A stretch of DNA of 64,000 bases from Candidatus Saccharibacteria bacterium CG2_30_41_52 (lineage in GTDB: Bacteria > Patescibacteriota > Saccharimonadia > Saccharimonadales > Saccharimonadaceae), in contig MNZN01000012.1 of assembly GCA_001873625.1 (NCBI GenBank), positions 12,712 to 76,711 on the forward strand, in the 5' to 3' direction. Below, one piece after another: positions 2,402-23,487 of this stretch. The notes under the pieces are model-generated. The model saw nothing but the letters and a program-made list of their open reading frames with translations, was not told where the DNA came from and ran no database searches. Both the position numbers and the translations under genes were made by a program. The stretch's first letter is position 1. Every line of letters starts with the position of its first letter.

Positions 2402-2570
2402 CAGGGGATTTTTAAAATGCCATCAATACTCTGCCACGGCTACCGCTTTCGTGTAATAAGTTTGGTCCATATTGAAGTCGAAGCTTTTTGACCTCCTTAA
2501 AAGAAAGGCTTTTTACCATAAGTATTATTATAGCTTACATTTCACTAGTAGATCGATGAAACTCATAAAA

Positions 2571-2831: not shown

Positions 2832-2842
2832 ATGTTATTATT

Positions 2843-2865
2843 CTAATGTAAATTGTTTACATTAG
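2843..2865. promoter_or_regulatory. perfect 10-3-10 palindrome, candidate operator for the adjacent Fur-family regulator
   Basis: CTAATGTAAA-ttg-TTTACATTAG lies in the 61-bp divergent intergenic region between the rhodanese gene and the Fur-like gene. It is AT-rich and dyad-symmetric like Fur/PerR boxes. Confidence 0.5.
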
Positions 2866-2892
2866 CAAGCAAACCAATTATAATAATAGTTA

Positions 2893-3282
2893 ATGATTAC
2901 GGCGCCAATTAAACGACAAACAAAATACTGCCAAGCAATTGAGCATACATTAAAAATGTTAGGTCATGCAACTAATGCCGAATTACTTACTTCCCTACGC
3001 AAATCTTACCCGGAATTAAGTGCAACAACCGTGCATCGTGCTACCACCAGACTAGCTTTACGTGATTCTATTGCCTCCGCACCTAAAGCCCTAGATGGTT
3101 CAATGCGCTATGACGCCAATATGACGCCTCATGACCATTTTGAATGTTCGTCATGTGGATTACTGCAAGATACAAATGTAAAAGACAAAGTAATTCCTAT
3201 TTTGGAATCATCGATTGATGGCTGTAAGGTTTCAGGTCAATTAATAATAACGGGGGTATGCAAAAAATGTATGAAAGAATAA
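2893..3282 (+). CDS. Fur-family (Fur/Zur/PerR-like) transcriptional regulator
   Basis: 129 aa with a winged-helix N-terminal half. Metal-site pattern HDHFECSSCG ... CKKC (two CxxC pairs) at the C-terminus. Confidence 0.7.
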   Translation: MITAPIKRQTKYCQAIEHTLKMLGHATNAELLTSLRKSYPELSATTVHRATTRLALRDSIASAPKALDGSMRYDANMTPHDHFECSSCGLLQDTNVKDKVIPILESSIDGCKVSGQLIITGVCKKCMKE

Positions 3283-3686
3283 AAAACTTTAAGTTATTGA
3301 TAATTGTCGTCGTTATAATGATTAGTTTTGGCGGTCTAGTATTTGTTGCAAATAATAATCAACCGAAAAATACTGCTGCTACTTTATCAATGCAAACAAT
3401 AAAAAATGACATCGCAGTCGGCGGACAACTTATCGACGTTCGAACGCCCGAAGAATTTGCAATTTCACATATCGATGGAGCAATTAATTTATCGTCGGTA
3501 GATATATTGGCCGGATCAATTCCATCGGGGCCCAAAGACAAACCTATCTATCTGTATTGCCATAGTGGCAATCGTTCGGGACAATCCACCACAGTCCTAA
3601 AAGCTGCTGGGTTTACTAATATCATTAATCTTGGCGCCATGACACATGTTCAGTCGCTGGGGGGAAATCTAATAACCAAGGAGTAA
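3258..3686 (+). CDS. membrane-anchored rhodanese-domain protein
   Basis: N-terminal TM helix (LLIIVVVIMISFGGLVFV) followed by a rhodanese domain with active-site loop YCHSGNRSGQS. Overlaps the Fur-like stop; the start could instead be 3267. Confidence 0.75.
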   Translation: MQKMYERIKNFKLLIIVVVIMISFGGLVFVANNNQPKNTAATLSMQTIKNDIAVGGQLIDVRTPEEFAISHIDGAINLSSVDILAGSIPSGPKDKPIYLYCHSGNRSGQSTTVLKAAGFTNIINLGAMTHVQSLGGNLITKE

Positions 3687-3691
3687 CATTT

Positions 3692-3949
3692 ATGATAATA
3701 ACAATTTATAGCACCAGATCTTGCCCATATTGCACTATGTTAAAACGCTGGCTTGATGAAAAGTCAGTCGAATATACAAATTACAATGTCGACGAAAACC
3801 CAATTGCCGCTCAGAATATGGTCAGACTAAGCGGTCAAATGGGCGTTCCGTTCAGCACGGTTGAGTACGGCGATAAACAAGTAGAAATGATTCTTGGTTT
3901 TGATAGGCCAAAATTTGAAGCAGTCTTTAAAGCCGCTCAATCTAAATAG
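3692..3949 (+). CDS. glutaredoxin/NrdH-like small redox protein
   Basis: 85 aa with a CPYC motif after beta1 and GVPF later, a thioredoxin-fold pattern. Paralogue of the ORF at 42282-42533. Confidence 0.75.
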   Translation: MIITIYSTRSCPYCTMLKRWLDEKSVEYTNYNVDENPIAAQNMVRLSGQMGVPFSTVEYGDKQVEMILGFDRPKFEAVFKAAQSK

Positions 3950-3955
3950 TTTTAT

Positions 3956-4924
3956 CTATTCCCAACTAAAGTTTTTGTGACCAAAGTGACCCCACTGGGC
4001 AGTCTCTTCATAAATTGGTCGTTTTAGATTAAGGGTTTTTATAATACCATTTGGTGACAAGTCATAGCCGACAACATTTTCTTGAACACCATCAACAATC
4101 ACTGATGCTTCAAGTGGTTGGTCATAACCAATTGCATATGCTAAACGTACAAAGACCTCTGTGGCTTTACGCTTTTTCAAATAATCAACGGCAATCTTGC
4201 GTGCAATATATGCAGCTGATCGGTCAACTTTGCTAGGATCTTTGCCGCTAAATGCACCGCCACCAATTGGAATGCGTGGACCATAATTATCAACGATAAG
4301 TTTGCGGCCAGTTAAGCCAGCGTCGGCTTCAAAACCACCGATTTGCCAATCACCTGCTGGATTAATATGAAAATCAACTTTATCGTATTTGGCAAGTTTT
4401 TCGGTTTTTAGCCAAGCCTCAACACTTTTCAGTAATTCATCGTGTTTTGCATTTTGAAAACTAACGACAATTGATGCAATTTTATCGCCTTCTAAAGTGA
4501 CTTGGGTCTTGCCATCAAATGGCCAAGTTTTATAAATATATTGGCACAATCGACGAGACAATACAGTTTCTAGGGGTAGCATTTCGGGCGTTTCGCTGCA
4601 TGCATAACCTACCATAATTCCCTGGTCGCCAGCTCCACCAATATCAACTCCTTGGGCAATCTCGGAACTTTGGGTTGCAATATGTTCGATAACTACAACG
4701 CTGCCAGCGATTCGCTTGACTATACCTTTGACATCAATACCAGTCGCTTTGGATGTGACTTCACCGGTTACGAACACAACACCGTGTCCACCAGCAATAT
4801 CAATACCAGCCCTAGCGTTCGGGTCCTGCGCAAAATGCGCATCCAAAATTGCGTCTGATATTTGATCGCAGATTTTGTCCGGATGCTTCGGCGAAACACT
4901 CTCGGCGGTTCTAAAATTTGACAT
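3956..4924 (-). CDS. metK: S-adenosylmethionine synthetase (short form, about 322 aa)
   Basis: Motifs TAESVSPKHPDKICDQISDAILD, GAGDQGIMVGYA and GGGAFSGKDPSKVDRSAAY. Start chosen at ATG 4922-4924, 8 nt after an AGGAG RBS; the ORF track start at 4954 is probably too long. Confidence 0.9.
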   Translation of the reverse strand: MSNFRTAESVSPKHPDKICDQISDAILDAHFAQDPNARAGIDIAGGHGVVFVTGEVTSKATGIDVKGIVKRIAGSVVVIEHIATQSSEIAQGVDIGGAGDQGIMVGYACSETPEMLPLETVLSRRLCQYIYKTWPFDGKTQVTLEGDKIASIVVSFQNAKHDELLKSVEAWLKTEKLAKYDKVDFHINPAGDWQIGGFEADAGLTGRKLIVDNYGPRIPIGGGAFSGKDPSKVDRSAAYIARKIAVDYLKKRKATEVFVRLAYAIGYDQPLEASVIVDGVQENVVGYDLSPNGIIKTLNLKRPIYEETAQWGHFGHKNFSWE

Positions 4925-4990
4925 GAAAATAACTCCTTTCGCGTATCTTTTCACCCATTAGGGAAAGATGGAAGAAGTTTTAACCTACAT

Positions 4991-5958: not shown

Positions 5959-6066
5959 TTAGTTACTAAAAGAGAAAGCAATTATCGCAAAAATAATAAT
6001 CACGACAACTACTATTACTAGTTCCAAAACCGTAAAACCATCTTGATGCTTGTGCAATTTTGACAT
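5959..6066 (-). CDS. 35-codon type IV prepilin-like stub (N-terminal leader and hydrophobic helix only)
   Basis: Translation is MSKLHKHQDG/FTVLELVIVVVVIIIFAIIAFSFSN*. It has the class III signal pattern G-F-T-x-x-E with Glu at +5. It is too short for a pilin head domain and too short to appear in the ORF track. Confidence 0.45.
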   Translation of the reverse strand: MSKLHKHQDGFTVLELVIVVVVIIIFAIIAFSFSN

Positions 6067-6114
6067 AAAAGATCTCATTTATTAATAGTTATATAATAAC
6101 ACGAACTAGGTAGC

Positions 6115-7038
6115 TTGATGATGGCTTTTTTGTTATACTTAAGCATTATAAGGAGTATTGTAATATCTATGGTGGAACCATGCACGATTAAAGCAAGTCA
6201 TAACAGACATGTTAGCACCCGTCGTCACTTACGATATATTCCGCTACTCCTAGCCGTAATGGTCATATATAGCCTTTTCTTATCTATATATGCCAGTGCC
6301 AAAACATCTATTTCTCAAAGTTACGCTACGACTGACAAATTATCGCTTGGCTCAATTGTCAGTTTAAAAAATAATACAACCGACCAAGTCGTCGCTGCCT
6401 CAACCTATAATATCGATAGCATTCTGGGTGTAGTCATTAACAATGGTAGCTCTATATTATCACTGACGAATGGCCAAGAAGACCAAGTCCAAGTCGCCAC
6501 TAGCGAATTAGCTTCCGTATTGGTATCTAACATCAATGGTGATATTGTTCAGGGCGATCAGATAACAGCATCACCAATTAAGGGTGTTGGTATGAGAGCC
6601 ACCAATAATACAAAGGTTATTGGAGTTGCTCAGGACATTCCCACAAACAGCAACAAACAACAATTTTACACCGATAGCGACGGCAAAAAACAATCCGTTG
6701 TTTTAGGTGAAGTTCCAATCCTGGTAAACGTTTCATTCTTTTTCAAAGAGCCAGAAAAAACATTGATTCCATCCGCACTACAAAACATAGCCAATGCTCT
6801 TGCCGGAAAACAAGTTAGTACACTTCCGATAGTTATTAGTGCAGCTATTTTTATCATAACAATCATAGTAGTTGTAAGTATTGTTTTTGCGATGGTTCGC
6901 AGCAGTATTATCTCTGTCGGCCGCAACCCAATGTCACAATCAGCAATTTATCGCGATCTTATCCAATTATCGGCCTTAGTATTGGCAATTTTGTCGGTCG
7001 GTATGATAGCAATTTATTTAGTGCTGACAAAGATGTAA
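6115..7038 (+). CDS. membrane protein: N-terminal anchor, about 200-aa extracytoplasmic S/T/N-rich domain, C-terminal helix-loop-helix resembling an ATP synthase c-subunit hairpin without the ion-binding carboxylate
   Basis: Lies directly upstream of the atp genes (4-nt gap). The C-terminus is ...IVFAMVRSSIISVGRNPMSQSAIYRDLIQLSALVLAILSVGMIAIYLVLTKM. The start may be the ATG at 6169. Confidence 0.55.
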   Translation: MMMAFLLYLSIIRSIVISMVEPCTIKASHNRHVSTRRHLRYIPLLLAVMVIYSLFLSIYASAKTSISQSYATTDKLSLGSIVSLKNNTTDQVVAASTYNIDSILGVVINNGSSILSLTNGQEDQVQVATSELASVLVSNINGDIVQGDQITASPIKGVGMRATNNTKVIGVAQDIPTNSNKQQFYTDSDGKKQSVVLGEVPILVNVSFFFKEPEKTLIPSALQNIANALAGKQVSTLPIVISAAIFIITIIVVVSIVFAMVRSSIISVGRNPMSQSAIYRDLIQLSALVLAILSVGMIAIYLVLTKM

Positions 7039-7042
7039 CCAT

Positions 7043-7699
7043 ATGAACAATATATTATTACAATCATTTATACTACTGAATGTATTTATCATGGGAATAC
7101 TAGTATCTGTTGCTGTCCGTCATGCGTATGCTCATTTCAGACCTAGAGAGAACGATGAGATTGAAAAGTCACATCCACATATTCAAGCTCAAAGCGCTCA
7201 CCTACCACCAGCCGTAAAAGAACGATTACTACAAGCATCTCAAGCTCATTTTCAAGCTGTTTTGAATCATTCGGCTGCAGAGTTACAACAAGATCTAAAG
7301 TCTACTGCCTTTCATTTAAATAAACAACTAGGGAAACTAGGGACTGACATTATTAGCGACGAGATGAAACGTTATCATGCTAGTCTTGATCAACTACGCA
7401 AACAAACAGAAACGACCATGCTTAACGCCCAAGCTGAAATTGCATTACATCAAACTGAAATCAAAGAAAAACTAACAAAACGCCAAACTGAATTAGAAAC
7501 TCAAATGGCTGAAGATATTACTGCTGAAAAACAAATGTTAATACAAAATATTGACACTAAACTAGCCGATGCGGTTGCATCATTCTTGACTGAAACTCTG
7601 CAACACAATGTCGATTTGGGTGCACAAAATGCATATTTGACGTCAATGCTCGAGGAACACAAAGCCGAAATTATAAAAGGCGTCAACGATGAAGCTTAG
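7043..7699 (+). CDS. atpF: ATP synthase peripheral-stalk subunit b-like protein
   Basis: One N-terminal TM helix followed by about 180 aa of predicted continuous charged helix. It sits immediately before delta and overlaps it by 11 nt. Sequence similarity to canonical b is weak; the call rests on architecture and synteny. Confidence 0.5.
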   Translation: MNNILLQSFILLNVFIMGILVSVAVRHAYAHFRPRENDEIEKSHPHIQAQSAHLPPAVKERLLQASQAHFQAVLNHSAAELQQDLKSTAFHLNKQLGKLGTDIISDEMKRYHASLDQLRKQTETTMLNAQAEIALHQTEIKEKLTKRQTELETQMAEDITAEKQMLIQNIDTKLADAVASFLTETLQHNVDLGAQNAYLTSMLEEHKAEIIKGVNDEA

Positions 7700-8174
7700 A
7701 CTGCCAGATAGTGTCGCTTCACCACAGGATTTAAATGCCCTATTGATTGAAGTTAGACAATATCAAAAATGGCTTGCTCACGAGTCTATAAAAAAGCAGG
7801 TTAATGTCAAACATATATCCGAACAGCCGGTTATGTCATCATCCATCAAAGAGCTTTTCCGTAATTACGATTTAAAAAAAATCATCGACCAGCATAGTAT
7901 TGAATCATTAATTGAGACCTTGGAAAAATACAAAAACTCCGCGCCATCAATTACCCTGACACTAGCAGCTACTCCAACAACTACCGTCAAATCAACTTTG
8001 GTAAGTTGGTGTCGCGATAATATTGCGCCCGACATATTAGTTGCCTTTCAATTTAATACCACTCTACTAGGCGGCATAGTAGTTCGACATGGCAGCCATA
8101 TTTTCGATTGGTCATTCAGACGTCAAATACTAGCTGCTCGTGAACATTTCCCAGAGGTACTGCGTAATGTTTGA
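7689..8174 (+). CDS. atpH: ATP synthase subunit delta (OSCP)
   Basis: C-terminal OSCP pattern ...LTLAATP...ILVAFQFNTTLLGGIVVRHGSHIFDWSFRRQI. Located between the b-like gene and alpha. Confidence 0.7.
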   Translation: MKLRLPDSVASPQDLNALLIEVRQYQKWLAHESIKKQVNVKHISEQPVMSSSIKELFRNYDLKKIIDQHSIESLIETLEKYKNSAPSITLTLAATPTTTVKSTLVSWCRDNIAPDILVAFQFNTTLLGGIVVRHGSHIFDWSFRRQILAAREHFPEVLRNV

Positions 8175-9609
8175 TAACCCAACTTTTCAAAAACTAGTCG
8201 AAGCTGACAACCTAACCGGCGAAGTAGTTGCTGTCAATAGTTTCATTATTGAAGTCCGCGGCCTAGAAGGCGTGCGTTTAGGCGCAAGTATTCTATTCCA
8301 AGACGGCCAACATGGAATGGTTCGTGAAGCCTATGGCAACAAAGTGATCTTATTCAACATTGACTCCGAAACAATGGCGCTAGGCACACTGGCGGTCGTA
8401 GAAAGCGACATGTTAAACATACCTGTTGGCAAAAAACTAGTTGGACGAGTAGTTTCGCCTATGGGACAACCGCTAGACGGCAAAGGCGCAATCCGAACAA
8501 CTGCAACTAGCGGTATCTTTAACGCCGCTCCGGGCATTATGGCCCGCAGCATGCTAAACGAACAACTAGCCAGTGGTGTTTCAGCAGTTGATAGTTTCTT
8601 CCCAGTGGTCCTAGGTCAGCGTATCGCCATCTTGGGCGATAGTAAATCAGGTAAAAGTACTTTTTTAAGCCAACTCAGCGCCAACCAAAAAGGTACCGAC
8701 CGCATCGTCGTTTACGTTTTGATTGGTAAACGTAAAGTCGACATTGAACAATTATTAACTGGCCTAAAAGATTCAGGTGCTATGGATCACACTATCGTAG
8801 TTTTGGCTGACATTTTTGATTCGCTTTCGCAATCATACCTGGCCCCATATGCCGGATGTGCCATGGCTGAATACCTATGGAATAGTGGCGAGGACGTAAT
8901 TATTATGTACGACGACCTTAGTAGCCATGCCGAAGCTTACCGACAGCTATCATTATTGCAAGAGGTCGACCCAGGGCGTGATTCTTATCCTGGCGATATG
9001 TTCTATTCACACTCAAGTCTACTAGAACGCGCTGGCAAATTATTGTCTAATGGCAAAACCTTAACTGCCCTACCAGTAGTATTGACGCCAAATGACGATA
9101 TTACCGCTTACCTATCAACCAACATTATGTCGATTACTGACGGACAGATTATCTTTGACCTTCGCGTTTTTCGACAAGGTATTCGTCCAGCCGTCAACGC
9201 CGGCCTATCTGTTTCGCGTGTTGGTGGCCAGGCCCAAACCAATCGTCAAAAACGGCTGTCAACGACATTATTTAAGACACTGGCAAAATATCACCAAGCT
9301 GAAGAGTTTTCACACTTTAGTTCCCAATTATCCAAAGAAACTACTATCGACCTAATCACTGGTAAATATATTTACGCAGCACTTCAACAACCGCCCGAAG
9401 AGCTTCACTCATTAGTCGAACAGCAATTAATTCTCGAAACCGTGATATTAAGCGGTGGCGAAATCGAAATCGATGTTCCTGGCATAAAGGAGTCTGCTAA
9501 ATCAGTCAGCTCTAAAGTCAAAGAAGAGAAAGATTTCGATCGAATTGAAGCCGAATTGTTAAAAAAGCATACCGTTAAATCCGAAGGTGGCGACCATGCG
9601 ACGAGCTAG
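8167..9609 (+). CDS. atpA: ATP synthase F1 subunit alpha
   Basis: Motifs YLAPYAGCAMAEY, IIMYDDLSSHAEAYRQLSLL, PGDMFYSHSSLLERA, LTALPVV, ITDGQIIF and GIRPAVNAGLSVSRVGGQAQT. The P-loop is GDSKSGKS. Start taken at ATG 8167, which overlaps the delta stop. Confidence 0.9.
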   Translation: MFDNPTFQKLVEADNLTGEVVAVNSFIIEVRGLEGVRLGASILFQDGQHGMVREAYGNKVILFNIDSETMALGTLAVVESDMLNIPVGKKLVGRVVSPMGQPLDGKGAIRTTATSGIFNAAPGIMARSMLNEQLASGVSAVDSFFPVVLGQRIAILGDSKSGKSTFLSQLSANQKGTDRIVVYVLIGKRKVDIEQLLTGLKDSGAMDHTIVVLADIFDSLSQSYLAPYAGCAMAEYLWNSGEDVIIMYDDLSSHAEAYRQLSLLQEVDPGRDSYPGDMFYSHSSLLERAGKLLSNGKTLTALPVVLTPNDDITAYLSTNIMSITDGQIIFDLRVFRQGIRPAVNAGLSVSRVGGQAQTNRQKRLSTTLFKTLAKYHQAEEFSHFSSQLSKETTIDLITGKYIYAALQQPPEELHSLVEQQLILETVILSGGEIEIDVPGIKESAKSVSSKVKEEKDFDRIEAELLKKHTVKSEGGDHATS

Positions 9610-10468
9610 TGCAATTGAGCGCGAGGCTGAACAAATTACGACTGTTCAGGATTTGACCAGTGTTTTTGAGAGCCTGGCTAGTACTCAGGTTGCAAAAATT
9701 AAGAACAAAGTTACACTTTCCGAAGAATTTTTCCAATTATTATGGAAGCGTTACAGCTCTATCAGGATCGACCCTAGTTTGCGTATTACTAATCGTGACG
9801 CCAATGGCGAACAAGCAAAAAAAGTCTTTGTTATCATTTCAGCCGAAGCAGGTCTAAGCGGCGACATCGACCAGCACCTTATCGAAACCATGCAACAAGA
9901 TTTAGATATGAATACAACTGACATTATTGTGTTGGGATCGCACGGCGCCAATCAGTTAGCTCAACGAAATATACCTTACGTTAGATTCTTTCAGGTTCCA
10001 GAATCCGACCATTATATTGATGTAAGTCCAGTCATTGACGCAATTTTGCCATATTCTAAAACAATCGTTTATTATGAGGAATACGTATCGCTAGGCGTTC
10101 AGGAAATAAAATCTATCGACTTAATTTCAAGTGTCCGTTCAATGAGCGAAGACGTGGATGACAATGTCGAAGAAGACGTTATGACCGCTGGAAATACTAT
10201 TTTTGAACCATCACTAGACGAGATTGCTGATCAGATGGAAGTAACCATGATGACACTGGCATTAAGTCAAACTATTTTGGAGTCCAGTCTTGCTCAGGCC
10301 GCTAGCCGATTTAACGCCATGGCAGTTGCAAAAAAGCGCGCCGGTGAATTATTGAATGATTACATGCTAGAGTTTCACCGAGCAAAACGAAGCGAAAGTG
10401 ACGGCCGTATGCGCGAAATCATGGTAAGCCTCAAGAAAAAACGAAAACATGCAGGAGTAAATCGATGA
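9587..10468 (+). CDS. atpG: ATP synthase F1 subunit gamma
   Basis: Lies between alpha and beta. N- and C-terminal helices are gamma-like (C-terminus ...SRFNAMAVAKKRAGELLNDYMLEFHRAKRSE). Alternative start at ATG 9596. Confidence 0.75.
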   Translation: MATMRRASAIEREAEQITTVQDLTSVFESLASTQVAKIKNKVTLSEEFFQLLWKRYSSIRIDPSLRITNRDANGEQAKKVFVIISAEAGLSGDIDQHLIETMQQDLDMNTTDIIVLGSHGANQLAQRNIPYVRFFQVPESDHYIDVSPVIDAILPYSKTIVYYEEYVSLGVQEIKSIDLISSVRSMSEDVDDNVEEDVMTAGNTIFEPSLDEIADQMEVTMMTLALSQTILESSLAQAASRFNAMAVAKKRAGELLNDYMLEFHRAKRSESDGRMREIMVSLKKKRKHAGVNR

Positions 10469-11817
10469 GAACTAATGCCGTCAAAATAGCAGGATCCGAA
10501 GTTGGAGTTATCAAGTCGCTTAGAGGTTTGATGGTTGAAATTCAAATAACTGGTGAGAGGCCTGACGTAAAAGAACTATTGATTGTCGAAAATCACCCAG
10601 AAGTATTTTTGGAAGTTAGCTTATTCAAAACCGATACAGCTGTATGTATTAATCTTACTAATAGCCAAGTTCTTTGTTGCGGCCAAAAAGTGTCACGCAG
10701 CAACACCAAAGTCACCGTTCCGGTCGGACCAAAAACTCTGGGACGAGTCTTTAGTGCCCTAGGCGAACCGCTTGATAATGGTCCAGCTCTTAATGACAAT
10801 CGACGCGCCATTAGCGAACCGTCAGGTACAAAAAACTATCACAAAGGCAAAAAGCTTGAACTGCTAGAGACAGGTATCAAAGTTATCGACTTTTTGACAC
10901 CATTCGTCAAGGGACGCAAAATTGGAATTGTCGGTGGTGCCGGTGTCGGTAAAACAGTCCTTACAATGGAGATGATTCACAACGTTACACGCAGTGAAAA
11001 AAGCTTGTCAATTTATTGTGGAGTTGGTGAACGTATCCGCGAAGGTAATGAATTATACGAAACATTAAAAGAAACCGAAGTGTTGAAAAATACAGTCATG
11101 TTCTTTGGACAAATGGACTCGACACCAGCAATTCGTTCAATGGTTGGACCAGCCGCTGCCACCAGCGCCGAATACTTCCGCGACGTTGAAGGCCGCGACA
11201 TTCTATTCTTCGTGGACAACATCTATCGCCATATTCAAGCCTTAACTGAACTTTCAACTAACCTGGGACTTATTCCTTCCGAAGGTGGCTATTCACCTAC
11301 CGTCTTTGCCGAACTGCGACGCCTCGAAGATCGACTCAGTTCCACCGACAAAGGAAGTATTACATCAGTTCAGGCCGTGTACATCCCTGCCGATGACCTT
11401 TCCGACCCTGCCGTGCAAGCAATTTCGCAACAGCTAGATTCAGTTTTGGTTTTGTCGCGTTCCGTTGCTGAAAACGGTATACGTCCAGCCGTCGACTTGC
11501 TTAAAACTACATCTTCGCTACTGACATCGACAATCGTTGGTGAGCGCCATTATCAATTGGCAGGCAAAGTCCAAGCTATCATGCAAAAATATGACTCTTT
11601 GAAAAACATTATCGCCATCGTTGGTGAAAACGAGTTATCACCTGCCGACCGCACCGATTATCAAAATGCTAAAAGATTAATCCAGTTCTTTTCACAAGAT
11701 TTCGCCGTTGCCGAACGTTACAACGGACGACCTGGCGAATATTACACTATCGATCAAACCTTGGATGGTATCGAAAAAATTCTTTTAGGCAAGGCAGCGG
11801 AAGAGGAAAAGAAATAA
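10465..11817 (+). CDS. atpD: ATP synthase F1 subunit beta
   Basis: Walker A GGAGVGKTV, GVGERIREGNE, FFVDNIYRHIQA, GSITSVQAVYIPADDLSDPA and GIRPAVDLL. ATGA overlap with gamma. Confidence 0.9.
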   Translation: MRTNAVKIAGSEVGVIKSLRGLMVEIQITGERPDVKELLIVENHPEVFLEVSLFKTDTAVCINLTNSQVLCCGQKVSRSNTKVTVPVGPKTLGRVFSALGEPLDNGPALNDNRRAISEPSGTKNYHKGKKLELLETGIKVIDFLTPFVKGRKIGIVGGAGVGKTVLTMEMIHNVTRSEKSLSIYCGVGERIREGNELYETLKETEVLKNTVMFFGQMDSTPAIRSMVGPAAATSAEYFRDVEGRDILFFVDNIYRHIQALTELSTNLGLIPSEGGYSPTVFAELRRLEDRLSSTDKGSITSVQAVYIPADDLSDPAVQAISQQLDSVLVLSRSVAENGIRPAVDLLKTTSSLLTSTIVGERHYQLAGKVQAIMQKYDSLKNIIAIVGENELSPADRTDYQNAKRLIQFFSQDFAVAERYNGRPGEYYTIDQTLDGIEKILLGKAAEEEKK

Positions 11818-11823
11818 TAAAAT

Positions 11824-12087
11824 ATGCGCCAGCCAGATAGTACATCTCGCTTGAACGTAATTGCTCGCGCACCTTTTAACGTTTATTACGAAGGCCCGGC
11901 CGAGGCTGTGACTGCCGTGAACAAAGTTGGCAAATTTGACGTTTTACCAGGTCACGCTGACTTTTTTTCGATATTAAATCCTGGTGAAATAATCATTGAA
12001 ACCGCGACTAATCCTGTCAGCTTTAATGTCACCAACGGCATCATCACAGTCCGAGACGACGAAGTATATCTTTTCGTTAATATCTAA
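11824..12087 (+). CDS. atpC: ATP synthase F1 subunit epsilon (short, beta-sandwich domain only)
   Basis: 87 aa. Pattern ...VTAVNKVGKFDVLPGHADFFSILNPGEIII... There is no C-terminal helical hairpin. Confidence 0.7.
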   Translation: MRQPDSTSRLNVIARAPFNVYYEGPAEAVTAVNKVGKFDVLPGHADFFSILNPGEIIIETATNPVSFNVTNGIITVRDDEVYLFVNI

Positions 12088-13134
12088 TTATTGCATTACC
12101 ATGTAATCGAATGCGTAGCCACCAGGCGCCAATGAACCGTTGATTCCTATACTAAATCCGCTTGCATCGCGATTAACATACGCACTACCTGTAACATGTC
12201 CAACTGCAGTAACAACAACGTGAGGTATATTACTATATTGATTGATAAAGGCTACGTAAGCCACAATGCCATTACCGCCGCCAACTCCGATATTAATAGC
12301 TACTGTCCCCGAAGCATCATTACCACTAATCGATATAGTACCGTTACTGCCAAGCGCTGGCCCAGGACCAACGCCGGGCGCTACGCCGCGAGTAATCACG
12401 TGACCACCGATAGTCAGTGTAGTATCTGATACCAGACTGCTAGCCTGAAATCCCCTGGCCGATAAAGTTCCACCAACAGCCAAATTACCTATTATATTAA
12501 CGTTATTATTAACAGTTAATAACTGGCTCATGGTTACCGGACCTTGCAAACTAGAAGACCCAGCAACTATTAAATTATTACGCAAATTCATGTTAGATAC
12601 CGTGCCATCACCACTGATGTTTACTTGACTAAGCGTTGTGTCACCTGCTTCTAGTTTAGTTATGCTAGCATCACCGGCCGAGAATTTACTACTAAGGTTA
12701 AATAGTCCAGCCACACTGACGTCACCGCCAACCGTAACTTTGCCTTTAAATGTCGAATTAGGACCGACAATCAGTTCGGTATTAGAATCACCTACTGGAT
12801 TGCGGCTGACCCCTAGCGTATCCAAAACATCAGAACTAATCGTCACCTCACCCTGAGTTGTTTTTTGCTCATTTTGAACTTGAGTATTCATCAAATAAAT
12901 AATAATGCCGGCATTTGCAGCCAAAATAACTGCAACTACAGCCAGACCTACGAAAGTTGCCTTGTGGCTAGGACGATACGTTGCATGACGAGGACGCAAA
13001 GCCGCCCGTGGAGACGCCGCAGCAGCAGAAGATTCTGGTTCAGAAGATTTATTATCGGTTTGAACTCGTAATAACTCAGGAGCTGGCGGCTCCGTTGATT
13101 TATTCTTGTTATCAGTTGATGGATGATTATTCAT
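12088..13134 (-). CDS. type II membrane-anchored protein with extracytoplasmic beta-helix-like repeats
   Basis: Charged N-terminus, one TM helix (FVGLAVVAVILAANAGIIIYL), then repetitive G/V/S/T/N-rich short strands (VTVGGDVSVAG, NISGDGTVSN, NIIGNLAVGG ...). Its stop codon abuts the atpC stop with 0 nt between them. Confidence 0.5.
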   Translation of the reverse strand: MNNHPSTDNKNKSTEPPAPELLRVQTDNKSSEPESSAAAASPRAALRPRHATYRPSHKATFVGLAVVAVILAANAGIIIYLMNTQVQNEQKTTQGEVTISSDVLDTLGVSRNPVGDSNTELIVGPNSTFKGKVTVGGDVSVAGLFNLSSKFSAGDASITKLEAGDTTLSQVNISGDGTVSNMNLRNNLIVAGSSSLQGPVTMSQLLTVNNNVNIIGNLAVGGTLSARGFQASSLVSDTTLTIGGHVITRGVAPGVGPGPALGSNGTISISGNDASGTVAINIGVGGGNGIVAYVAFINQYSNIPHVVVTAVGHVTGSAYVNRDASGFSIGINGSLAPGGYAFDYMVMQ

Positions 13135-13249: not shown

Positions 13250-13981
13250 ATGTCAAAGAGGTTAATTTGGTGGGTGCGTATGTCGGTTATTTTGACATAT
13301 TTTATTGTTTGCGGTGCAACCACCGTATATGCCGAAACCCTCCAATCAAACAATTATAAATTCGACGAAAGTGTCGTCGGCGCTGGTGGATTAGTTGATT
13401 CGTCATCAAGCAGCTATCAAGGCAGCAGTTCAACCGGTGATTTAGTAGTCGGCAATACTGCTTCTGGCGGTTATCAAATCGATACTGGATCAAAAACAAC
13501 TCCTGACCCGACATTATCATTTGCGATTAATAATAGCGACGTTGATTTTCCGGATTTTACACCAACTGGAACATCCGTAAAGTCTATGACATTTTCAGTA
13601 TTGAACTACACCAGCTATGGTTACGCAGTCCAAATATTCGGCAATCCGCCCACTAACGGAGCCCATACGATTACACCAATGCTAGCAACCGACACATCAC
13701 AAATCGGCCAAGAACAATTTGGGATTAATCTGGTTGCCAATACTCTACCATCTTCTATCGGTGCCAACCCAGACAATGGACAATTCGGGTTTGGAGCTGT
13801 CGAAACGAATTACAATACTCCGAATAGCTATCGTTATGTCGCTGGTGAAACGATTGCATCAGCCCCTAAAAGTTCTGGTATAACCGTCTACACAATTAGC
13901 TACATAGTTAACGTTGCCAGTATTACTCCTGGTGGAAAATATACCAGCGATCAAACAATTATAATAACTGGTACGTATTAA
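13250..13981 (+). CDS. secreted beta-rich protein, distant paralogue of the two following proteins (putative minor surface-fibre subunit)
   Basis: Signal peptide ...TTVYA/ETLQ. Shares QFGINLVANT and the C-terminal YTISYIVNVASITPGGKYTSDQTIIITGTY* pattern with ORFs 14117 and 15340. Confidence 0.5.
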   Translation: MSKRLIWWVRMSVILTYFIVCGATTVYAETLQSNNYKFDESVVGAGGLVDSSSSSYQGSSSTGDLVVGNTASGGYQIDTGSKTTPDPTLSFAINNSDVDFPDFTPTGTSVKSMTFSVLNYTSYGYAVQIFGNPPTNGAHTITPMLATDTSQIGQEQFGINLVANTLPSSIGANPDNGQFGFGAVETNYNTPNSYRYVAGETIASAPKSSGITVYTISYIVNVASITPGGKYTSDQTIIITGTY

Positions 13982-14038
13982 TTGTCCACTATTTTGGCAT
14001 AGTTATCCACAATTTAGCAATAAAGATAGCCCAACCTG

Positions 14039-14067
14039 TTGACATGTTATAACGCTAGTGCTATTGT
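14039..14067 (+). promoter_or_regulatory. sigma70-like promoter candidate (TTGACA-17-TATTGT)
   Basis: TTGACA at 14039-14044, a 17-nt spacer, and TATTGT at 14062-14067. It lies about 50 nt upstream of the 14117 start. Confidence 0.4.
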
Positions 14068-14116
14068 TATCTTAACAAAACCAATTTAATAGATTGAGAA
14101 AACGAAAACAAAAACA

Positions 14117-15253
14117 ATGGCAACAAAACAAAAATTATCAACGAAAATTATAAGTATAGCTGTATTGGTTTCAATATTGCTATCACAAGTACTACCCTTC
14201 AGTACCGCATCAGCTGCCCAAATTACAGCTCGTAAATTAACCCTTCAAGCAGGTGCCGCCGACGGCGGTTCAATGGCTGGTGGTGTCGTAAACCATTTGT
14301 TTGATTTTGCCCTACCAAGTGGTACTACTGTTGGATCAATCGAATTTGAATATTGTACACTTGCCGCTGGCGTTCCTAACCCAGACACCTGCGTAACACC
14401 AACTGGTCTTAATACTACTTCAGCTACTATAGGTAGCCAAAGCGGTGCTGCAACCGGATTTACAATGGTCAACACGACCAATGGTGCTCCATATTTAACT
14501 CGCACTACAGCAGTTATTACTCCGGGTGTCGCCCAATACCGATTAGATACAATCACTAACCCAACTACCGAAAATGAAACTTTCTTTGTCCGTGTATCTA
14601 CCTTTGCTTCTACGGATGCTACTGGTACTAAGACCGATACAGGTACGGTAGCTGCTAGCACTACAACTCAGATTATCCTATCGGGTATCATGCCAGAATC
14701 ACTAGTCTTTTGTACAGGAGCAACAATTTCTGCCCCAATCGCAAACGTTCCTGACTGTTCAACTGCAACTAGCGGCGCAATCAGCTTTAACCAATTGTTC
14801 TCTCCTGTCGATACTGCATATGCAACATCACAAATGGCTGCATCAACTAATGCTGGGTCAGGATATAACATTACTGTAAATGGTCCAACCTTAACATCAG
14901 GATCAAATACCGTAGTAGCAATGAACGCTGCCGACATCAGCCGACGCGGTGTTAGCCAATTCGGACTAAACCTAGTCGATAACACACCTGACCTTGTTAC
15001 TCCAGACGTTGGTGCTGCAATCTCGCTAGCCTCAAACGGAACAAACTTCCGCGCTCAGGCCCTAGCAGGATACAACACAGACGCAACCTTCAAGTTTACC
15101 CCTGGTGATAGCGTCGCCGACAGTGCAAGCGGCGGAGCCGGTGGAACAGACGCACAGATTATGACCGTATCATACATTGTGAACGTAACTGGTAGTCAAC
15201 CAGCTGGTACCTACACCTCGACTCTTACTTACATCTGTACACCAACATTCTAA
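14117..15253 (+). CDS. secreted T/S/G/A-rich beta protein, putative major surface-fibre subunit (paralogue 1)
   Basis: Signal peptide ...STASA/AQITARKL. The C-terminus is QIMTVSYIVNVTGSQPAGTYTSTLTYICTPTF*. High identity to 15340-16464 in the C-terminal half. Confidence 0.55.
   Translation: MATKQKLSTKIISIAVLVSILLSQVLPFSTASAAQITARKLTLQAGAADGGSMAGGVVNHLFDFALPSGTTVGSIEFEYCTLAAGVPNPDTCVTPTGLNTTSATIGSQSGAATGFTMVNTTNGAPYLTRTTAVITPGVAQYRLDTITNPTTENETFFVRVSTFASTDATGTKTDTGTVAASTTTQIILSGIMPESLVFCTGATISAPIANVPDCSTATSGAISFNQLFSPVDTAYATSQMAASTNAGSGYNITVNGPTLTSGSNTVVAMNAADISRRGVSQFGLNLVDNTPDLVTPDVGAAISLASNGTNFRAQALAGYNTDATFKFTPGDSVADSASGGAGGTDAQIMTVSYIVNVTGSQPAGTYTSTLTYICTPTF
14750..14883 (+). repeat. 134-bp tract identical to 15961-16094 (copy 1)
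   Basis: Compared base by base: cctgactgttcaactgcaac...attactgtaaatgg is identical in both paralogues. Flanking DNA is only about 75-80% identical. Confidence 0.9.
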
Positions 15254-15266
15254 TAAAACTGTGGAT

Positions 15267-15297
15267 AAATAGCCGTCAATATCATTGACGGCTATTT
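15267..15297 (+). terminator. perfect 14-bp stem hairpin between the two paralogues
   Basis: AAATAGCCGTCAAT-atc-ATTGACGGCTATTT lies 14 nt after the stop. It is followed by AAAG rather than a long U tract, so it may attenuate rather than fully terminate. Confidence 0.5.
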
Positions 15298-15314
15298 AAA
15301 GCTTATGTTACAAT
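15285..15314 (+). promoter_or_regulatory. promoter candidate TTGACG-18-TACAAT with TG extended -10
   Basis: The -35 element lies in the 3' arm of the preceding hairpin. TGtTACAAT is at 15306-15314, 25 nt before ATG 15340. Confidence 0.4.
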
Positions 15315-15339
15315 CCTCTTAATGAGAGTGAGGGGTAAC

Positions 15340-16464
15340 ATGAGTGGAAAATATAAATTACTAAGATTATTTGTCAGCGTTCTATTATTAGTAACTACTG
15401 TTAGTACCGCATTTGGAGGCCAATCGGCTTTAGCTGCGCAGATTACAGCTCGTAGTCTTCAGCTTCAGGCTGGTGTTGCTGATGGGGGCTCAAAAGCCAG
15501 TGGTGTCGTAAATCACTTCTACACATTCACTATACCTACCACTGGAAACGTTGGATCTATTCAATTCTTATACTGCACAACAGCTAGCGGTACTTGTACT
15601 ACCCCTACAGGCCTAGCTACTACCGCAGCTACTTTAAACGGAACACAAACTGGTGCGACAGGATTTACACTTGGCACCACACCTACGGTTGATGGTGCCC
15701 CATATATAACACGCGCTCCATCCAGCGTTACAGGTCCCCAAGTTGTTACATATAAATTAGATGGCATAACAAACCCATCAACAGCAAACCAAACCTTTTA
15801 TGTCCGTATATCTACTTGGACACTAGCAGACCTAGGTGGCGCCAGTACTGACGCCGGCGTCGTGGCCGCCAGTACCGCATCACAGATTATCCTAACTGGA
15901 CAAATGCCAGAATCTCTAATCTTTTGTGCTGGTGCAACTATATCAGCTCCAGGCGGAATCCCTGACTGTTCAACTGCAACTAGCGGCGCAATCAGCTTTA
16001 ACCAATTGTTCTCTCCTGTCGATACTGCATATGCAACATCACAAATGGCTGCATCAACTAATGCTGGGTCAGGATATAACATTACTGTAAATGGCACTAC
16101 AATGACATCCGGTTCAAATACAGTTACCGCTATGAACTCAGCTGATATCAGCCGACGAAGCGTTAGCCAATTCGGTCTTAACTTGATGGATAACACACCA
16201 GATGCCGTCACTCCAGACGTAGGTACTGCAATTACAGCAGCGTCTAACGGTACAGATTTACGAGCGCAAGCCCTAGCAGGATATAGCACAGATGGCACAT
16301 TCAAATTCACACCAGGTGAAAGTGTCGCTGACAGCGCAAACGGTGGAGCGGGCCCTACAAACGCCCAGATCATGACCGTATCTTATATCGTCAACGTAGC
16401 AGGTAGCCAGGCAGCCGGTACATACACAACTACCCTAACCTACATCTGTACAGCAACTTTCTAG
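15340..16464 (+). CDS. secreted T/S/G/A-rich beta protein, putative major surface-fibre subunit (paralogue 2)
   Basis: Signal peptide ...GQSALA/AQITARSL. The C-terminus is QIMTVSYIVNVAGSQAAGTYTTTLTYICTATF*. Start taken at ATG 15340 after a GAGGGG RBS; the ORF track start is 15322. Confidence 0.55.
   Translation: MSGKYKLLRLFVSVLLLVTTVSTAFGGQSALAAQITARSLQLQAGVADGGSKASGVVNHFYTFTIPTTGNVGSIQFLYCTTASGTCTTPTGLATTAATLNGTQTGATGFTLGTTPTVDGAPYITRAPSSVTGPQVVTYKLDGITNPSTANQTFYVRISTWTLADLGGASTDAGVVAASTASQIILTGQMPESLIFCAGATISAPGGIPDCSTATSGAISFNQLFSPVDTAYATSQMAASTNAGSGYNITVNGTTMTSGSNTVTAMNSADISRRSVSQFGLNLMDNTPDAVTPDVGTAITAASNGTDLRAQALAGYSTDGTFKFTPGESVADSANGGAGPTNAQIMTVSYIVNVAGSQAAGTYTTTLTYICTATF
15961..16094 (+). 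repeat. 134-bp tract identical to 14750-14883 (copy 2)
   Basis: See copy 1. Confidence 0.9.
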
Positions 16465-16467
16465 CCT

Positions 16468-17472
16468 ATGAAAAAGAACCAAATACTTATTACAGCTTGT
16501 CTAAGCTTTACAGCTCTAGCCTTCGGATTGATATATTCAACACCTCAAGTTGCCGCTCAGACTAATGCAACTGGGCAAGGGCTTGAAATTGCACCACCAG
16601 TTATTACACTAACAGCTGATCCAGGACAAACAATTAATACAAAGATTAGTCTACGCGACGTTTCAGGTGGAGATTTAGTTGTAACCGGTCAAATTAATGA
16701 CTTCGTAGCTAGCGGCGAAGGTGGCGCACCAAAAGTGTTGCTAGAAGAAACCGATAAAAGTCCTTACTCAATTAAGGATTGGATTAGTCCTCTTCCAGAA
16801 TTAACATTAAAACCTAAACAGATAGAAAACCTTCCAGTAACTATAACTGTGCCGACAAATGCAGCACCTGGTGGTTATTATGGCGTAATTCGTTTTACGG
16901 CCACACCCCCCGAACTAAAAGATACAGGCGTATCACTATCAGCTAGCTTAGGGGCATTGATATTGCTGAGAGTTAATGGCGACGTAAAAGAAGAACTATC
17001 AATTGAAGAGTTTTTTGTTAGTAAAAATGGCGGCAAAGGGACCTTGTTTGAAACAGCTCCATTGCAATTTTCTGAACGTTTAAAAAATGATGGTACTATT
17101 CACGAAAAACCAAGTGGCCTAGTAACTATAACTGACATGTTCGGTAATAAAACTGCTACTTTAGGTATTAATCAACCGCCAACCAATATTTTGCCAGGCA
17201 GTATTCGTAAATACGATCAAACATTAGATAGTTCGGTAATTGGCAACAAGATATTATTTGGGCTATATACAGCTGACCTCAGCATTACATATGGTGCAAA
17301 TAACACCGTATTAAATCAAAAGATTACATTCTGGGTTATACCATATACGCTAATTGGCGCAACAATTGCCGCACTAATCATTGCATTCCTTGGTCTACGC
17401 TATGCAATCAAACGTTACAACAAACACATTCGCGACCAAGTACTCGGCACTACTAAAAAGTCAAAAAAGTAA
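16468..17472 (+). CDS. signal peptide + beta-sandwich (Ig-like) domains + C-terminal TM anchor; DUF916/DUF3324 (CscA)-like layout
   Basis: Signal ...PQVAA/QT. Strands LEIAPPVITLTADPGQTINTKISLRDVSG and PVTITVPTNAAPGGYYGVIRFTA. C-terminal TM helix LIGATIAALIIAFLGL with a basic tail RYAIKRYNKH...KKSKK. There is a 3-nt gap to the upstream gene. Confidence 0.5.
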   Translation: MKKNQILITACLSFTALAFGLIYSTPQVAAQTNATGQGLEIAPPVITLTADPGQTINTKISLRDVSGGDLVVTGQINDFVASGEGGAPKVLLEETDKSPYSIKDWISPLPELTLKPKQIENLPVTITVPTNAAPGGYYGVIRFTATPPELKDTGVSLSASLGALILLRVNGDVKEELSIEEFFVSKNGGKGTLFETAPLQFSERLKNDGTIHEKPSGLVTITDMFGNKTATLGINQPPTNILPGSIRKYDQTLDSSVIGNKILFGLYTADLSITYGANNTVLNQKITFWVIPYTLIGATIAALIIAFLGLRYAIKRYNKHIRDQVLGTTKKSKK

Positions 17473-17513
17473 TACTATAATCAAGTCGTTTTACACTTAC
17501 GGCACGGTGTATA

Positions 17514-18500
17514 TTGCCTAGTATGCGTGATATAATACAGATTATGCTAACATGGTTGAAATTAAGTCAACATCATCATAGCGGTCGTTTAAGGCCTCAT
17601 GAACATACCTCTTATGCCCTACTAGGACTGATACTGATAATAGTCGGCCTTGCTTTGACTGCTTATACTGCATACGCCTCAACGCCATATACAGGACCCG
17701 AAGCTGGATCAATAAGCTTGACCGGCGTTATGCCTGGCAAACCGCCGACAATTGCCGCAACAATCAAATCCACAAATGACCAGGAACGTTTTACCAATTC
17801 ACCCGTTATATTTACTGGAACTTGTCCAGCTAATACATTGGTAGAAATATTTAAAAATGATATTTTTGCAGGATCAACTCCGTGTACTGACGCTGGGATT
17901 TATTCGGTTAGTATTGATTTGATGATTGGGCAAAACATTCTAAAAGCCCGGGTTTATGATGCTTTGAACCAACCAGGCCCTGATTCAACACCGCTAATAG
18001 CGTTCTACGACGCTTTGCCTCCACAAGCTGGCCCATTAACGTCGCTAAATTTTGGTGGCTCACAATTATTGTTAAATACTGATGCAGCCTTTCGTGGAAT
18101 TTTTCCTAACCAAGAATTGAACATTCCTATCGATATCCTCGGTGGTACTGCCCCATACGCATTCAACATTCAATGGGGAGATGCTACTAACAAAGTCGTA
18201 TCGCGTAGTGACAATATGACATTTAAAGTCGGACACACTTACCTAAAAGCAGGTACATACCAGATTTCAATCCAAGCAACCGACGCAATGGGTCGTGTTG
18301 CCTTTCTGACAGTCGCCTCAATCGTAAACGGACAACCTATTATTGCAGCTGCTACTGGCACTGGAAGTGCGGCTGAAAACAAACTATTGGTATTATGGCC
18401 ACTTTATGTCAGCGCAGTTGCTGTTGTTATGAGCTTTTTCATTGGCGAAAAACGCGAAAAACGCGTTCTGATAAAGCATGGTTTACTACAGACCCTATAG
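17514..18500 (+). CDS. membrane protein with PKD-type domain, anchored at both ends
   Basis: N-terminus is His-rich (HHHSGRLRPHEHTSY) followed by a TM helix. PKD-like block APYAFNIQWGDATNKVVSRSDNMTFKVGHTYLKAGTYQISIQATDAMGRVAF. C-terminal TM helix LLVLWPLYVSAVAVVMSFFIG. Start may be ATG 17544. Confidence 0.55.
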   Translation: MPSMRDIIQIMLTWLKLSQHHHSGRLRPHEHTSYALLGLILIIVGLALTAYTAYASTPYTGPEAGSISLTGVMPGKPPTIAATIKSTNDQERFTNSPVIFTGTCPANTLVEIFKNDIFAGSTPCTDAGIYSVSIDLMIGQNILKARVYDALNQPGPDSTPLIAFYDALPPQAGPLTSLNFGGSQLLLNTDAAFRGIFPNQELNIPIDILGGTAPYAFNIQWGDATNKVVSRSDNMTFKVGHTYLKAGTYQISIQATDAMGRVAFLTVASIVNGQPIIAAATGTGSAAENKLLVLWPLYVSAVAVVMSFFIGEKREKRVLIKHGLLQTL

Positions 18501-23371: not shown

Positions 23372-23487
23372 TCGTCAACTCACGATTATCATTTGTATTT
23401 AGGTTTATTCTATTCTTCTATACTAGGGGCATCACAATACTACTCTGCTTCTTAAATTCTTAACATAACTATGATAAAATAACAGTA

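Follow-up and report, generated by a model that had tools for sequence, protein, structure and literature searches.

An F1-like ATPase gene cluster of Saccharibacteria headed by a membrane protein with a carboxylate-less hairpin, and its possible connection to the cell surface

To our knowledge, F1-like ATPases that serve a surface machine without ion translocation are known only in mollicutes. These F1-like X0 ATPases include the Type 2 enzyme, which is the G1 gliding motor of Mycoplasma mobile (MMOB1610-1670), and the Type 3 enzyme associated with MIB-MIP (MMCAP2_0575-0581), both of which co-exist with canonical F1Fo and serve surface machines, namely the gliding legs and MIB-MIP (PMC12994834). 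Here, we describe a cluster of seven genes of Candidatus Saccharibacteria bacterium CG2_30_41_52 (positions 6115-12087 of the analysed stretch of contig MNZN01000012.1) that encodes an F1 head and a candidate peripheral stalk, has no linked gene for subunit a or c, and is headed by the gene of a membrane protein of 307 amino acids (aa), or 289 aa according to gene callers, for which the working name C307 is used. All positions refer to the whole stretch of 64,000 nucleotides (nt), called the window below, unless they are given for another locus. In our judgement, the cluster rather probably encodes a second F1-like rotary ATPase, apart from the canonical F1Fo enzyme, in which C307 is the membrane part and which delivers ATP-driven work to the cell surface. 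By analogy, it is best read as the counterpart, in the candidate phyla radiation (CPR), of the mollicute F1-like X0 ATPases.

Two reports on CPR bacteria are relevant to this cluster. In WWE3 RAAC2 and OP11, an atypical operon has been described, in two sentences, as a possible ion-translocating synthase, with a transmembrane protein common to CPR ATPase operons as the putative subunit c (Kantor et al. 2013, PMC3812714); this operon may be of the same type as the one described here. A June 2026 preprint on the donor-strand-exchange Pam pili of Ca. Mycosynbacter amalyticus (Troman et al., bioRxiv 10.64898/2026.03.03.709456), the source of the NCBIfam Pam models, reports a co-localisation of pam operons, throughout the CPR, with ATP synthase genes and with a tail-fibre-like gene. 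There, the ATPase linkage is taken as a coupling to ATP production or metabolism, and it is concluded that the pili have no dedicated or specialised trans-envelope assembly machinery; a search of its text for the terms "subunit c" and "F-type" found neither.

The cluster in comparison with described F-type ATPases

Bacterial F1Fo operons usually have the gene order atpB-atpE-atpF-atpH-atpA-atpG-atpD-atpC. In the window, seven packed, co-directional open reading frames (ORFs) on the + strand follow the order C307, b-like, delta, alpha, gamma, beta and short epsilon (Table 1). There is a gap of 4 nt between the end of C307 at 7038 and the start of the b-like gene at 7043, the pairs b-like/delta (7689-7699), delta/alpha, alpha/gamma and gamma/beta (10465-10468) overlap, and 6 nt (11818-11823) separate beta from epsilon; this layout had been proposed in an earlier interpretation made from the letters of the DNA (the sequence-only reading) and is borne out by the ORF listing. 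Gene-caller starts, read from identical public contigs, one of them in NCBI assembly GCA_002795915.1, place the beginning of the first gene at ATG 6169 (289 aa), that of alpha at 8167 and that of gamma at 9596. Alpha and beta match PF00006 at E ~1e-66, and epsilon, with its 87 aa, matches PF02823 only and is indeed devoid of the helical domain, as had been noticed before. Neither the 307-aa protein nor the 218-aa b-like protein matched any Pfam or NCBIfam family.

The head appears competent. Beta carries the Walker A motif GGAGVGKT, the catalytic Glu motif GERIREGNE, the Walker B motif FFVDNI and PADDLSDPA, alpha carries the Arg finger SVSRVG, and beta can be aligned with F1 beta chains of known structure (381 bits for Bacillus PS3), so that, by its sequence, the F1 looks catalytically intact and under strong constraint. 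For every F1 subunit, the best NCBIfam model is that of canonical F1, yet all scores lie under the curated equivalog cutoffs (score/cutoff: alpha 406/554, beta 450/462.85, gamma 73/194, delta 30/57.5, epsilon 39/67). The unusual alpha P-loop GDSKSGKS of the sequence-only reading is present, and the nearest alpha clusters all have GDxK[ST]GK[ST] instead of GDRQTGKT; a profile search with distant alpha sequences was dominated by canonical alpha and gave 7 of this variant type among the 120 matches listed. Compared with canonical alpha and beta from a small genome, identity is just 41-47%. Since the F1 subunits fall under the equivalog cutoffs, the P-loop of alpha is altered and identity to the canonical subunits is that low, the cluster is, as judged from these sequences, an ATPase type distinct from the canonical synthase. 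The b-like protein gives a weak match to canonical b (hhalign probability 12%) and no match to PF00430; its slot between C307 and delta is kept in 82 loci. Assignments as a V/A-type ATPase or as an FliI/type III secretion system ATPase were rejected on NCBIfam scores and gene content.

The canonical F1Fo operons, atpIBEFHAGDC in Southlakia epibionticum, RAAC3 and the loci L088 and L089 (L numbers are our designations of loci), share with this cluster the order from b to epsilon, the catalytic motifs and the Pfam families of delta, gamma and epsilon, whereas here subunit a is missing, the c slot is occupied by the 289-aa ectodomain protein without the carboxylate, epsilon has no C-terminal helices and the alpha P-loop is altered. 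With the mollicute X0 clusters, the present one has in common that it is probably a second F1-derived cluster, beside a canonical F1Fo, of a small-genome, host-dependent bacterium, that it encodes alpha-, beta-, gamma- and epsilon-like subunits and neither a nor c, and that it is tied genomically to a surface machine. Moreover, the mollicute proteins MMCAP2_0577 and MMOB1650 have the architecture of C307, namely a signal peptide, an ectodomain and two C-terminal transmembrane helices (PMC12994834); however, the mollicute ectodomain protein has 87-127 kDa as compared to ~29 kDa for C307, and no sequence similarity is detectable between them. The present cluster keeps delta and the b-like stalk, both of which are absent from mollicute X0, and has neither the protein with 12 transmembrane helices nor the small cytoplasmic protein found there. 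The mollicute family models all missed their cutoffs (390/570, 263/520, 320/600 and 348/850), and alpha and beta are nearer to canonical F1. Membership in the mollicute X0 families was rejected on these scores and on these differences in gene content, and the cluster probably arose independently of them. The N-ATPases (atpDCQRBEFAG) resemble the probable arrangement here in being encoded by a second F-type operon beside the canonical one, and the alt_F1F0 models give sizeable partial scores here; however, N-ATPases have a, c, AtpQ and AtpR and no delta, and the present cluster differs in each of these respects as well as in gene order. With the alt_F1F0 scores far under the cutoffs, this identity was rejected, too.

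A scan of one genome per species yielded 154 species with a C307 relative, and the best 80 of the 154 were examined for gene order. In these 80 species loci, the order C307-b-delta-alpha-gamma-beta-epsilon is kept wherever the contig reaches, with identities of 73-85% for alpha, 74-86% for beta, 51-77% for C307 and 30-67% for b. A metagenome scan with a two-sequence alignment returned 16 loci. Among distant loci, L087, L090, L091 and L106 have the same order and L086 has it with extra genes inserted, and each of these clusters is headed by a C307 homologue at 25-37% identity. The arrangement is far beyond chance. Because the distant loci share the altered P-loop and the C307-headed cluster, the enzyme type is, by the sequence evidence, old and widespread in Patescibacteria. 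The linkage of the 307-aa gene to the b-like gene, which the sequence-only reading had proposed to check in relatives, is thus kept in 80 species as well as in four or more clades that are deeper.

Hidden Markov model (HMM) searches found neither subunit a nor subunit c in the 64-kb window, in the 10 kb further upstream or in ~105 related loci, with the positive controls detected, and no free c-like ORF of 70-90 aa with a carboxylate in the middle of helix 2 is present in the window or in the ~105 related loci. The absence of a and c, noticed originally for the window, is thereby extended to a much larger set of loci. The HMMs were built from the real a and c subunits of the canonical operons L088 and L089 together with E. 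coli sequences, and the a-subunit HMM detects L088 and L089 only. The canonical atpIBEFHAGDC operon of L088 (L088 7593-14278) lies on a 941-kb contig.

Whether the canonical synthase is encoded elsewhere can be judged from relatives. By KEGG Orthology (KO) counts, each of the five closed genomes listed has a single copy of atpB, atpE, atpF and atpC. For atpA, atpD and atpG, the count is one in TM7x and RAAC3 but two in S. aalborgensis, in GWC2_44_17 and in Ca. Mycosynbacter amalyticus; in the same source, alpha, beta, gamma and epsilon without a, b and c are recorded for several CAILAD01 bins (PMC12592800 Table S5). According to published data, PF00006 is found only 2x in the closed genome of Southlakia epibionticum, both times within the canonical atpIBEFHAGDC operon. 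With single a, b and c genes but duplicate alpha, beta and gamma in three closed relatives, the cluster most likely specifies a second enzyme in addition to a canonical F1Fo whose genes lie elsewhere, and we infer that the extra copies of alpha, beta and gamma in those closed relatives belong to clusters of this type. In some other lineages, the cluster may be the only F-type ATPase. Of the three explanations offered by the sequence-only reading, unlinked Fo genes would hold in a different sense only, namely that a complete canonical operon is probably present elsewhere as a separate enzyme; loss of Fo is unlikely for this lineage, as its relatives keep atpB, atpE and atpF; and docking of the F1 and stalk on a non-canonical membrane partner is the best supported of the three, in view of the conserved C307-b linkage and the mollicute protein of the same architecture. 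The same reading had named as counter-evidence intact atpB and atpE elsewhere in the genome, together with a hairpin lacking profile similarity to subunit c and a gene lacking conserved linkage to atpF. Such atpB and atpE genes probably exist, judging by the relatives, while a weak profile similarity and conserved linkage were both found.

The membrane protein C307

The databases contain 1751 relatives of C307, and those with a named source are all labelled Saccharibacteria or Patescibacteria. The N-terminal segment of C307, in which the sequence-only reading saw a membrane anchor, resembles a Sec signal peptide and has an AxA site. It is followed by a beta-rich ectodomain that in a Foldseek search against PDB resembles phage cement proteins, those of Borrelia phage BB1, Pam3 (gp6), Sf11 and XM1, at E 1e-4 and TM(target) 0.43-0.57; weak matches of the ectodomain to Pfam PF23982/PF22758 occur in members of the C307 family. 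The AlphaFold2 (AF2) model computed with 63 sequences has a mean pLDDT (predicted local distance difference test score) of 83, and with 19 close sequences the pLDDT of the ectodomain was <50.

Subunit c is a helical hairpin with a polar R-Q/N-P loop and an essential Asp/Glu in the middle of helix 2, and its loop touches gamma and epsilon. The C-terminal part of C307 is strongly conserved (...SSIISVGRNPMSQSAIYRD...) and is modelled as two helices, H218-252 and H254-288, with pLDDT 82-96, joined by a loop R-N-P. Basic residues beside this loop agree with the positive-inside rule, and the loop would thus be cytoplasmic, with both ends of the hairpin outside. At the position of the c carboxylate, 18 residues past the loop Pro, where the sequence-only reading had found Leu in place of the ion-binding Glu, L, I, V or M is present in 85/85 Saccharibacteria homologues, and the membrane stretch of helix 2 contains Asp or Glu in 0/85. 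Thus, the descriptive claim holds that a protein with a carboxylate-less R-N-P hairpin fills the slot before the b-like gene, with no a or c linked. Helix 1 of the hairpin has Ser/Ala and not the Gly-rich GxGxGxG repeat of subunit c.

When the hairpin was compared with c subunits by hhalign, the score was 25.8-26 (P 1.3e-4, probability 46-54%), the loop and the whole of helix 2 being aligned in the expected register, with the c carboxylate placed onto the L/I/V/M position. In 300 column shuffles, the mean score was 8.8 +/- 2.2, and 0/300 reached the real score. Shallow alignments gave an hhalign probability of 3%, and the signal appeared only with broader profiles that included the real c subunits of L088 and L089. 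With topology, loop and an hhalign score above the shuffles on its side, and the lack of matches in database searches (see below) on the other, the c-like nature of the hairpin may be upheld tentatively, and descent of the hairpin from subunit c is plausible on these sequence comparisons.

The c subunit of the L088 operon has a G-R-N-P loop (AMEAIGRNPEAASK...AFAEAIAIY), a loop tetrapeptide identical to that of C307. Paralogues of C307 outside the ATPase slot are found in L086, on the opposite strand directly after epsilon (13848-14600, - strand), and in L107, where a lone paralogue (L107 10001-10840), on a 1.31-Mb contig, has a CBM/Kelch protein of 4506 aa as its neighbour and F1 genes are absent for 10 kb around it.

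Table 1. Features of the cluster and of its surroundings in the window
Feature	Position	Strand	Evidence or remark
Prepilin-like micro-gene, 39 aa: leader, G|FTVLE motif, hydrophobic helix only ("headless pilin")	5959..6078	-	divergent from the ATPase cluster
Promoter-like site TTGACA-18-AATAGT	6060..6089	+	consensus scan, 10/12 matches; pattern match only
C307: signal peptide or anchor, beta ectodomain, C-terminal helical hairpin	6115..7038, probable start ATG 6169	+	1751 homologues; AF2 mean pLDDT 83
C307 ectodomain, beta-rich, phage capsid cement/decoration-like	6301..6804	+	invariant motif N-x-N-G-x4-G-D
C-terminal two-helix membrane hairpin, c-subunit-like, without membrane carboxylate	6823..7032	+	AF2 helices pLDDT 82-96
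Putative cytoplasmic loop R-N-P, counterpart of the c-subunit R-Q/N-P loop	6922..6930	+	invariant in alignments of all clades examined
b-like peripheral-stalk candidate: N-terminal transmembrane helix, then long helical region	7043..7699	+	architecture, position
delta (OSCP)	7689..8174	+	PF00213 27.1 bits, cutoff 22.3
alpha-like	8140..9609, gene-caller start 8167	+	PF00006; P-loop GDSKSGKS; Arg-finger motif SVSRVG
gamma	9587..10468, gene-caller start 9596	+	PF00231 94.6 bits
beta-like catalytic subunit	10465..11817	+	GGAGVGKT, GERIREGNE, DNIYRH, PADDLSDPA
epsilon, N-terminal beta-sandwich only, 87 aa	11824..12087	+	PF02823 47.4 bits; no room for PF00401
Convergent 348-aa single-pass membrane protein, repetitive beta-helix-like ectodomain	12088..13134	-	weak Bactofilin/WxLIP_HBD matches only
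PamT, tip pilin of CPR Pam pilus	13250..13981	+	NCBIfam NF058579 278.7 bits, cutoff 240
Two Pam pilin genes	14117-15253 and 15322-16464	+	NF058581 CPR_Pam_pilin_C 140 and 134.6 bits, cutoff 55
Candidate membrane-anchored PamC/PamD-type chaperone	16468..17472	+	two domains, C-terminal transmembrane helix, weak WxLIP_PGBD match
PamR, RbmA-like pilus anchor/terminator	17514..18500	+	NF058578 313.4 bits, cutoff 300

Pam genes and other neighbours

Directly downstream of the cluster lies a Pam operon that looks complete (13250-18500; Table 1). The candidate PamC/PamD-type chaperone, so named by analogy, is 28% identical (E 7e-28) to the product of a gene inside the ATPase cluster of L086. There, a Pam-type pilin gene and a chaperone-like gene separate the C307 gene from the b-like gene, all of them closely spaced and in the same direction. 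The convergent gene between the cluster and pamT directly follows epsilon in 60 loci, and in the window its stop codon abuts that of epsilon with no spacer; by analogy, its product may be the tail-fibre-like protein of Pam neighbourhoods. The downstream flank is conserved in ~60 loci, and the upstream genes vary among relatives. An assignment of the downstream genes to WxL/Csc-like surface proteins, suggested by weak Pfam matches and a C-terminal motif, was replaced by the NCBIfam Pam assignments, which are above the cutoffs.

The motif of the C307 ectodomain, VSNINGDIKxGD, recurs in proteins of ~1430 aa that have no R-N-P hairpin (L097 7370-11665, L101 2297-6589, L103 7241-11524). These adjoin Pam-type pilin and chaperone-like genes in L101 and L103, and in L097 there is just a weaker chaperone-like blastp match. 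Alpha-like matches of 411-441 aa near the ~1430-aa proteins read like the transcription terminator Rho and were dropped as unrelated. In clades without nearby Pam genes, giant surface proteins instead adjoin the cluster. In the window, the pam genes are followed, at 18641-29136, by the genes of two predicted surface proteins of giant size (1576 and 1882 aa), the larger of which contains many Kelch repeats, and giant Kelch, CBM, DUF4082 or Peptidase_S74 proteins flank C307-type genes in L087, L106 and L107, too.

Upstream, what the sequence-only reading took for gene debris includes the prepilin-like micro-gene of Table 1. An equivalent ORF is found on the opposite strand 30-288 nt upstream of the C307 gene in 57/84 related loci, and 57/59 matches of its motif in 1365 kb are at that position; it is absent from distant clades. 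Pfam N_methyl matches the equivalents in L001 and L004, and NCBIfam gave weak prepilin matches only. Membership of the micro-gene in the ATPase system is uncertain. Further genes upstream encode a P-type cation ATPase, a rhodanese, FUR, a glutaredoxin and MetK (window 86-4954) and, still further (L108 12297-15876), two CNNM/CorB-like proteins and a lone MazE antitoxin. CorB and MazE match the "ATP/PMF (proton-motive force) sensing" flank of the pam region of M. amalyticus, which suggests a close relationship.

Possible mechanism and alternative explanations

In the mechanism that we propose, a cytoplasmic alpha3beta3-gamma-epsilon head would be held by a peripheral stalk of delta and the b-like protein, and this retained stator, together with a competent F1, would allow real torque between gamma/epsilon and alpha3beta3. 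The membrane part would be an oligomer of C307 instead of subunit a and a c-ring that binds protons; since there is no membrane carboxylate and no subunit a, the canonical ion path is not usable, and the enzyme would act as an ATPase only. The two C-terminal helices of C307 would form the c-like hairpin, possibly assembled into a ring, with the R-N-P loop facing the cytoplasm and docking gamma and epsilon, as is suggested by the invariance of this loop and the reduction of epsilon to its c-ring-binding domain. The N-terminal beta domain would lie outside the cell and move relative to the stator, so that on ATP hydrolysis a torque or conformational change could be passed via C307 to the exterior. 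In this lineage, the external client would likely be the adjacent Pam donor-strand-exchange pilus and related surface proteins, and the action might consist in pilus assembly, in resetting the membrane-anchored chaperones or in moving the fibre.

A bolder version, which we put forward tentatively and consider doubtful, is that the F1-like ATPase sits at the base of the Pam pilus as the machine so far missing there, in which a C307 ring turned by gamma/epsilon bears an external cement-like crown. The crown would take pilin-chaperone complexes and drive the donor-strand-exchange polymerisation, the rotation or the extrusion of the helical fibre. If true, a single-membrane bacterium would thereby possess an ATP-powered rotary device that corresponds in function to the outer-membrane usher, and the signal-peptide/two-transmembrane-helix proteins of the mollicute F1-like X0 ATPases would be c-ring derivatives that work likewise.

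Several points weigh against a second F1-like ATPase built on C307 and working at the surface. The hairpin matched no c subunit in Pfam, in NCBIfam or in sequence searches of PDB (phmmer and profile, E <= 10), the hhalign probability is ~50%, and one shuffle reached 25.3 as compared to the real 25.8. The phage cement-like fold is typically trimeric and would suit a small bundle as well as a ring, and C307 was modelled as a monomer, its ring and its contact with gamma/epsilon being proposed. The b-like protein resembles b in architecture alone. Co-occurrence with a canonical operon is deduced from published KO counts of relatives, which are other genomes than this one. Within 10 kb of the clusters in L087, L090, L091 and L106 there are no Pam genes, and Pam therefore cannot be the universal client. 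Finally, at P+12 (12 residues past the loop Pro), Glu is present in L092 (6884-7726) and Asp in L093 (2011-2802) and L095 (1215-2000), which belong to a sister Saccharimonadales clade; these residues might provide a polar or ionisable site in the inner leaflet.

It is unlikely, in our estimate, that the adjacency of the Pam genes is historical, with the cluster encoding a second F1-like enzyme whose cytoplasmic or membrane role is unrelated to Pam. The loci L087, L090, L091 and L106, with no Pam genes within 10 kb, agree with such inherited synteny, and all 80 Saccharibacteria loci come from one fairly close clade, so that their shared order may be inherited. However, it is the downstream Pam flank and not the upstream one that is conserved, the distant L086 clade has Pam-type genes inside the cluster, large proteins encoded next to Pam genes also contain the ectodomain module of C307, and clades without Pam still have giant surface proteins beside the cluster.

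We regard as quite improbable that the alpha, beta, gamma, delta, epsilon and b-like proteins of the cluster serve as an alternative F1 head and stalk mounted on subunit a and the c-ring of a canonical operon located elsewhere, C307 being an unrelated or accessory neighbour. The closed relatives with one a, one c and two alpha, beta and gamma (PMC12592800 Table S5) could be explained in this way, beta scores nearly at the canonical atpD cutoff (450 versus 462.85 bits), and delta and the b-like stalk are kept; against this, translational packing of C307 against the b-like gene is seen in every clade, the R-N-P loop of C307 does not vary, and some CAILAD01 bins have alpha, beta, gamma and epsilon and none of a, b and c. 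Canonical b normally binds subunit a, and the transmembrane helix of the b-like protein has diverged beyond recognition from that of canonical b.

Little credence is given to an unconventional ion pump, in which a C307 oligomer would carry a non-canonical site, for example at P+12, and another membrane protein, with the b-like helix and the Glu5-bearing mini-prepilin encoded by the micro-gene as candidates, would serve as the stator channel. Besides the acidic residues listed above, P+12 is Gln in the window clade, L087 and L090, which would suit such a site, and the conserved micro-gene that adjoins the cluster encodes just one membrane helix, with Glu5; however, P+12 is Phe or Arg in other clades, a conserved Arg within the membrane is missing from the b-like transmembrane helix, distant clades lack the mini-prepilin and no half-channel protein is present. 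Least credible is a sole, degenerate ATP synthase with lost or scattered Fo genes, of which the cluster would be a remnant or the only F-type enzyme: it would account for the lack of a and c in the 64 kb plus 10 kb and beside the cluster in ~105 loci, and in a closed WWE3 genome the a, b and c subunits of the only ATP synthase operon are unrecognisable (Kantor et al. 2013, PMC3812714), but purifying selection is strong, the catalytic motifs are intact, and the closest closed genomes (S. aalborgensis, GWC2_44_17, M. amalyticus) also have atpB, atpE and atpF.

The cluster is a real, conserved and largely undescribed variant of the F-type ATPase, for which a c-subunit ancestry of the hairpin is plausible and a ring and a role at the pilus are proposed. 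Counts of "F-type ATPase" in metabolic reconstructions of Saccharibacteria would then mix the real synthase with a second enzyme. The finding also challenges two views of the Pam preprint, namely that the neighbouring ATP synthase genes stand for metabolism and that the pilus can do without a membrane machine of its own, and the question is directly addressable in Ca. Mycosynbacter amalyticus, which is cultivable and for which cryo-electron tomography (cryo-ET) and proteomics data exist. Compared with the mollicute systems, the CPR cluster would represent a similar solution to the transfer of force through the membrane in a more readable form, with a full stator, a small membrane partner and a c-like hairpin joined to an outside domain, and gives a concrete, testable model of how torque may be exported to the cell surface.

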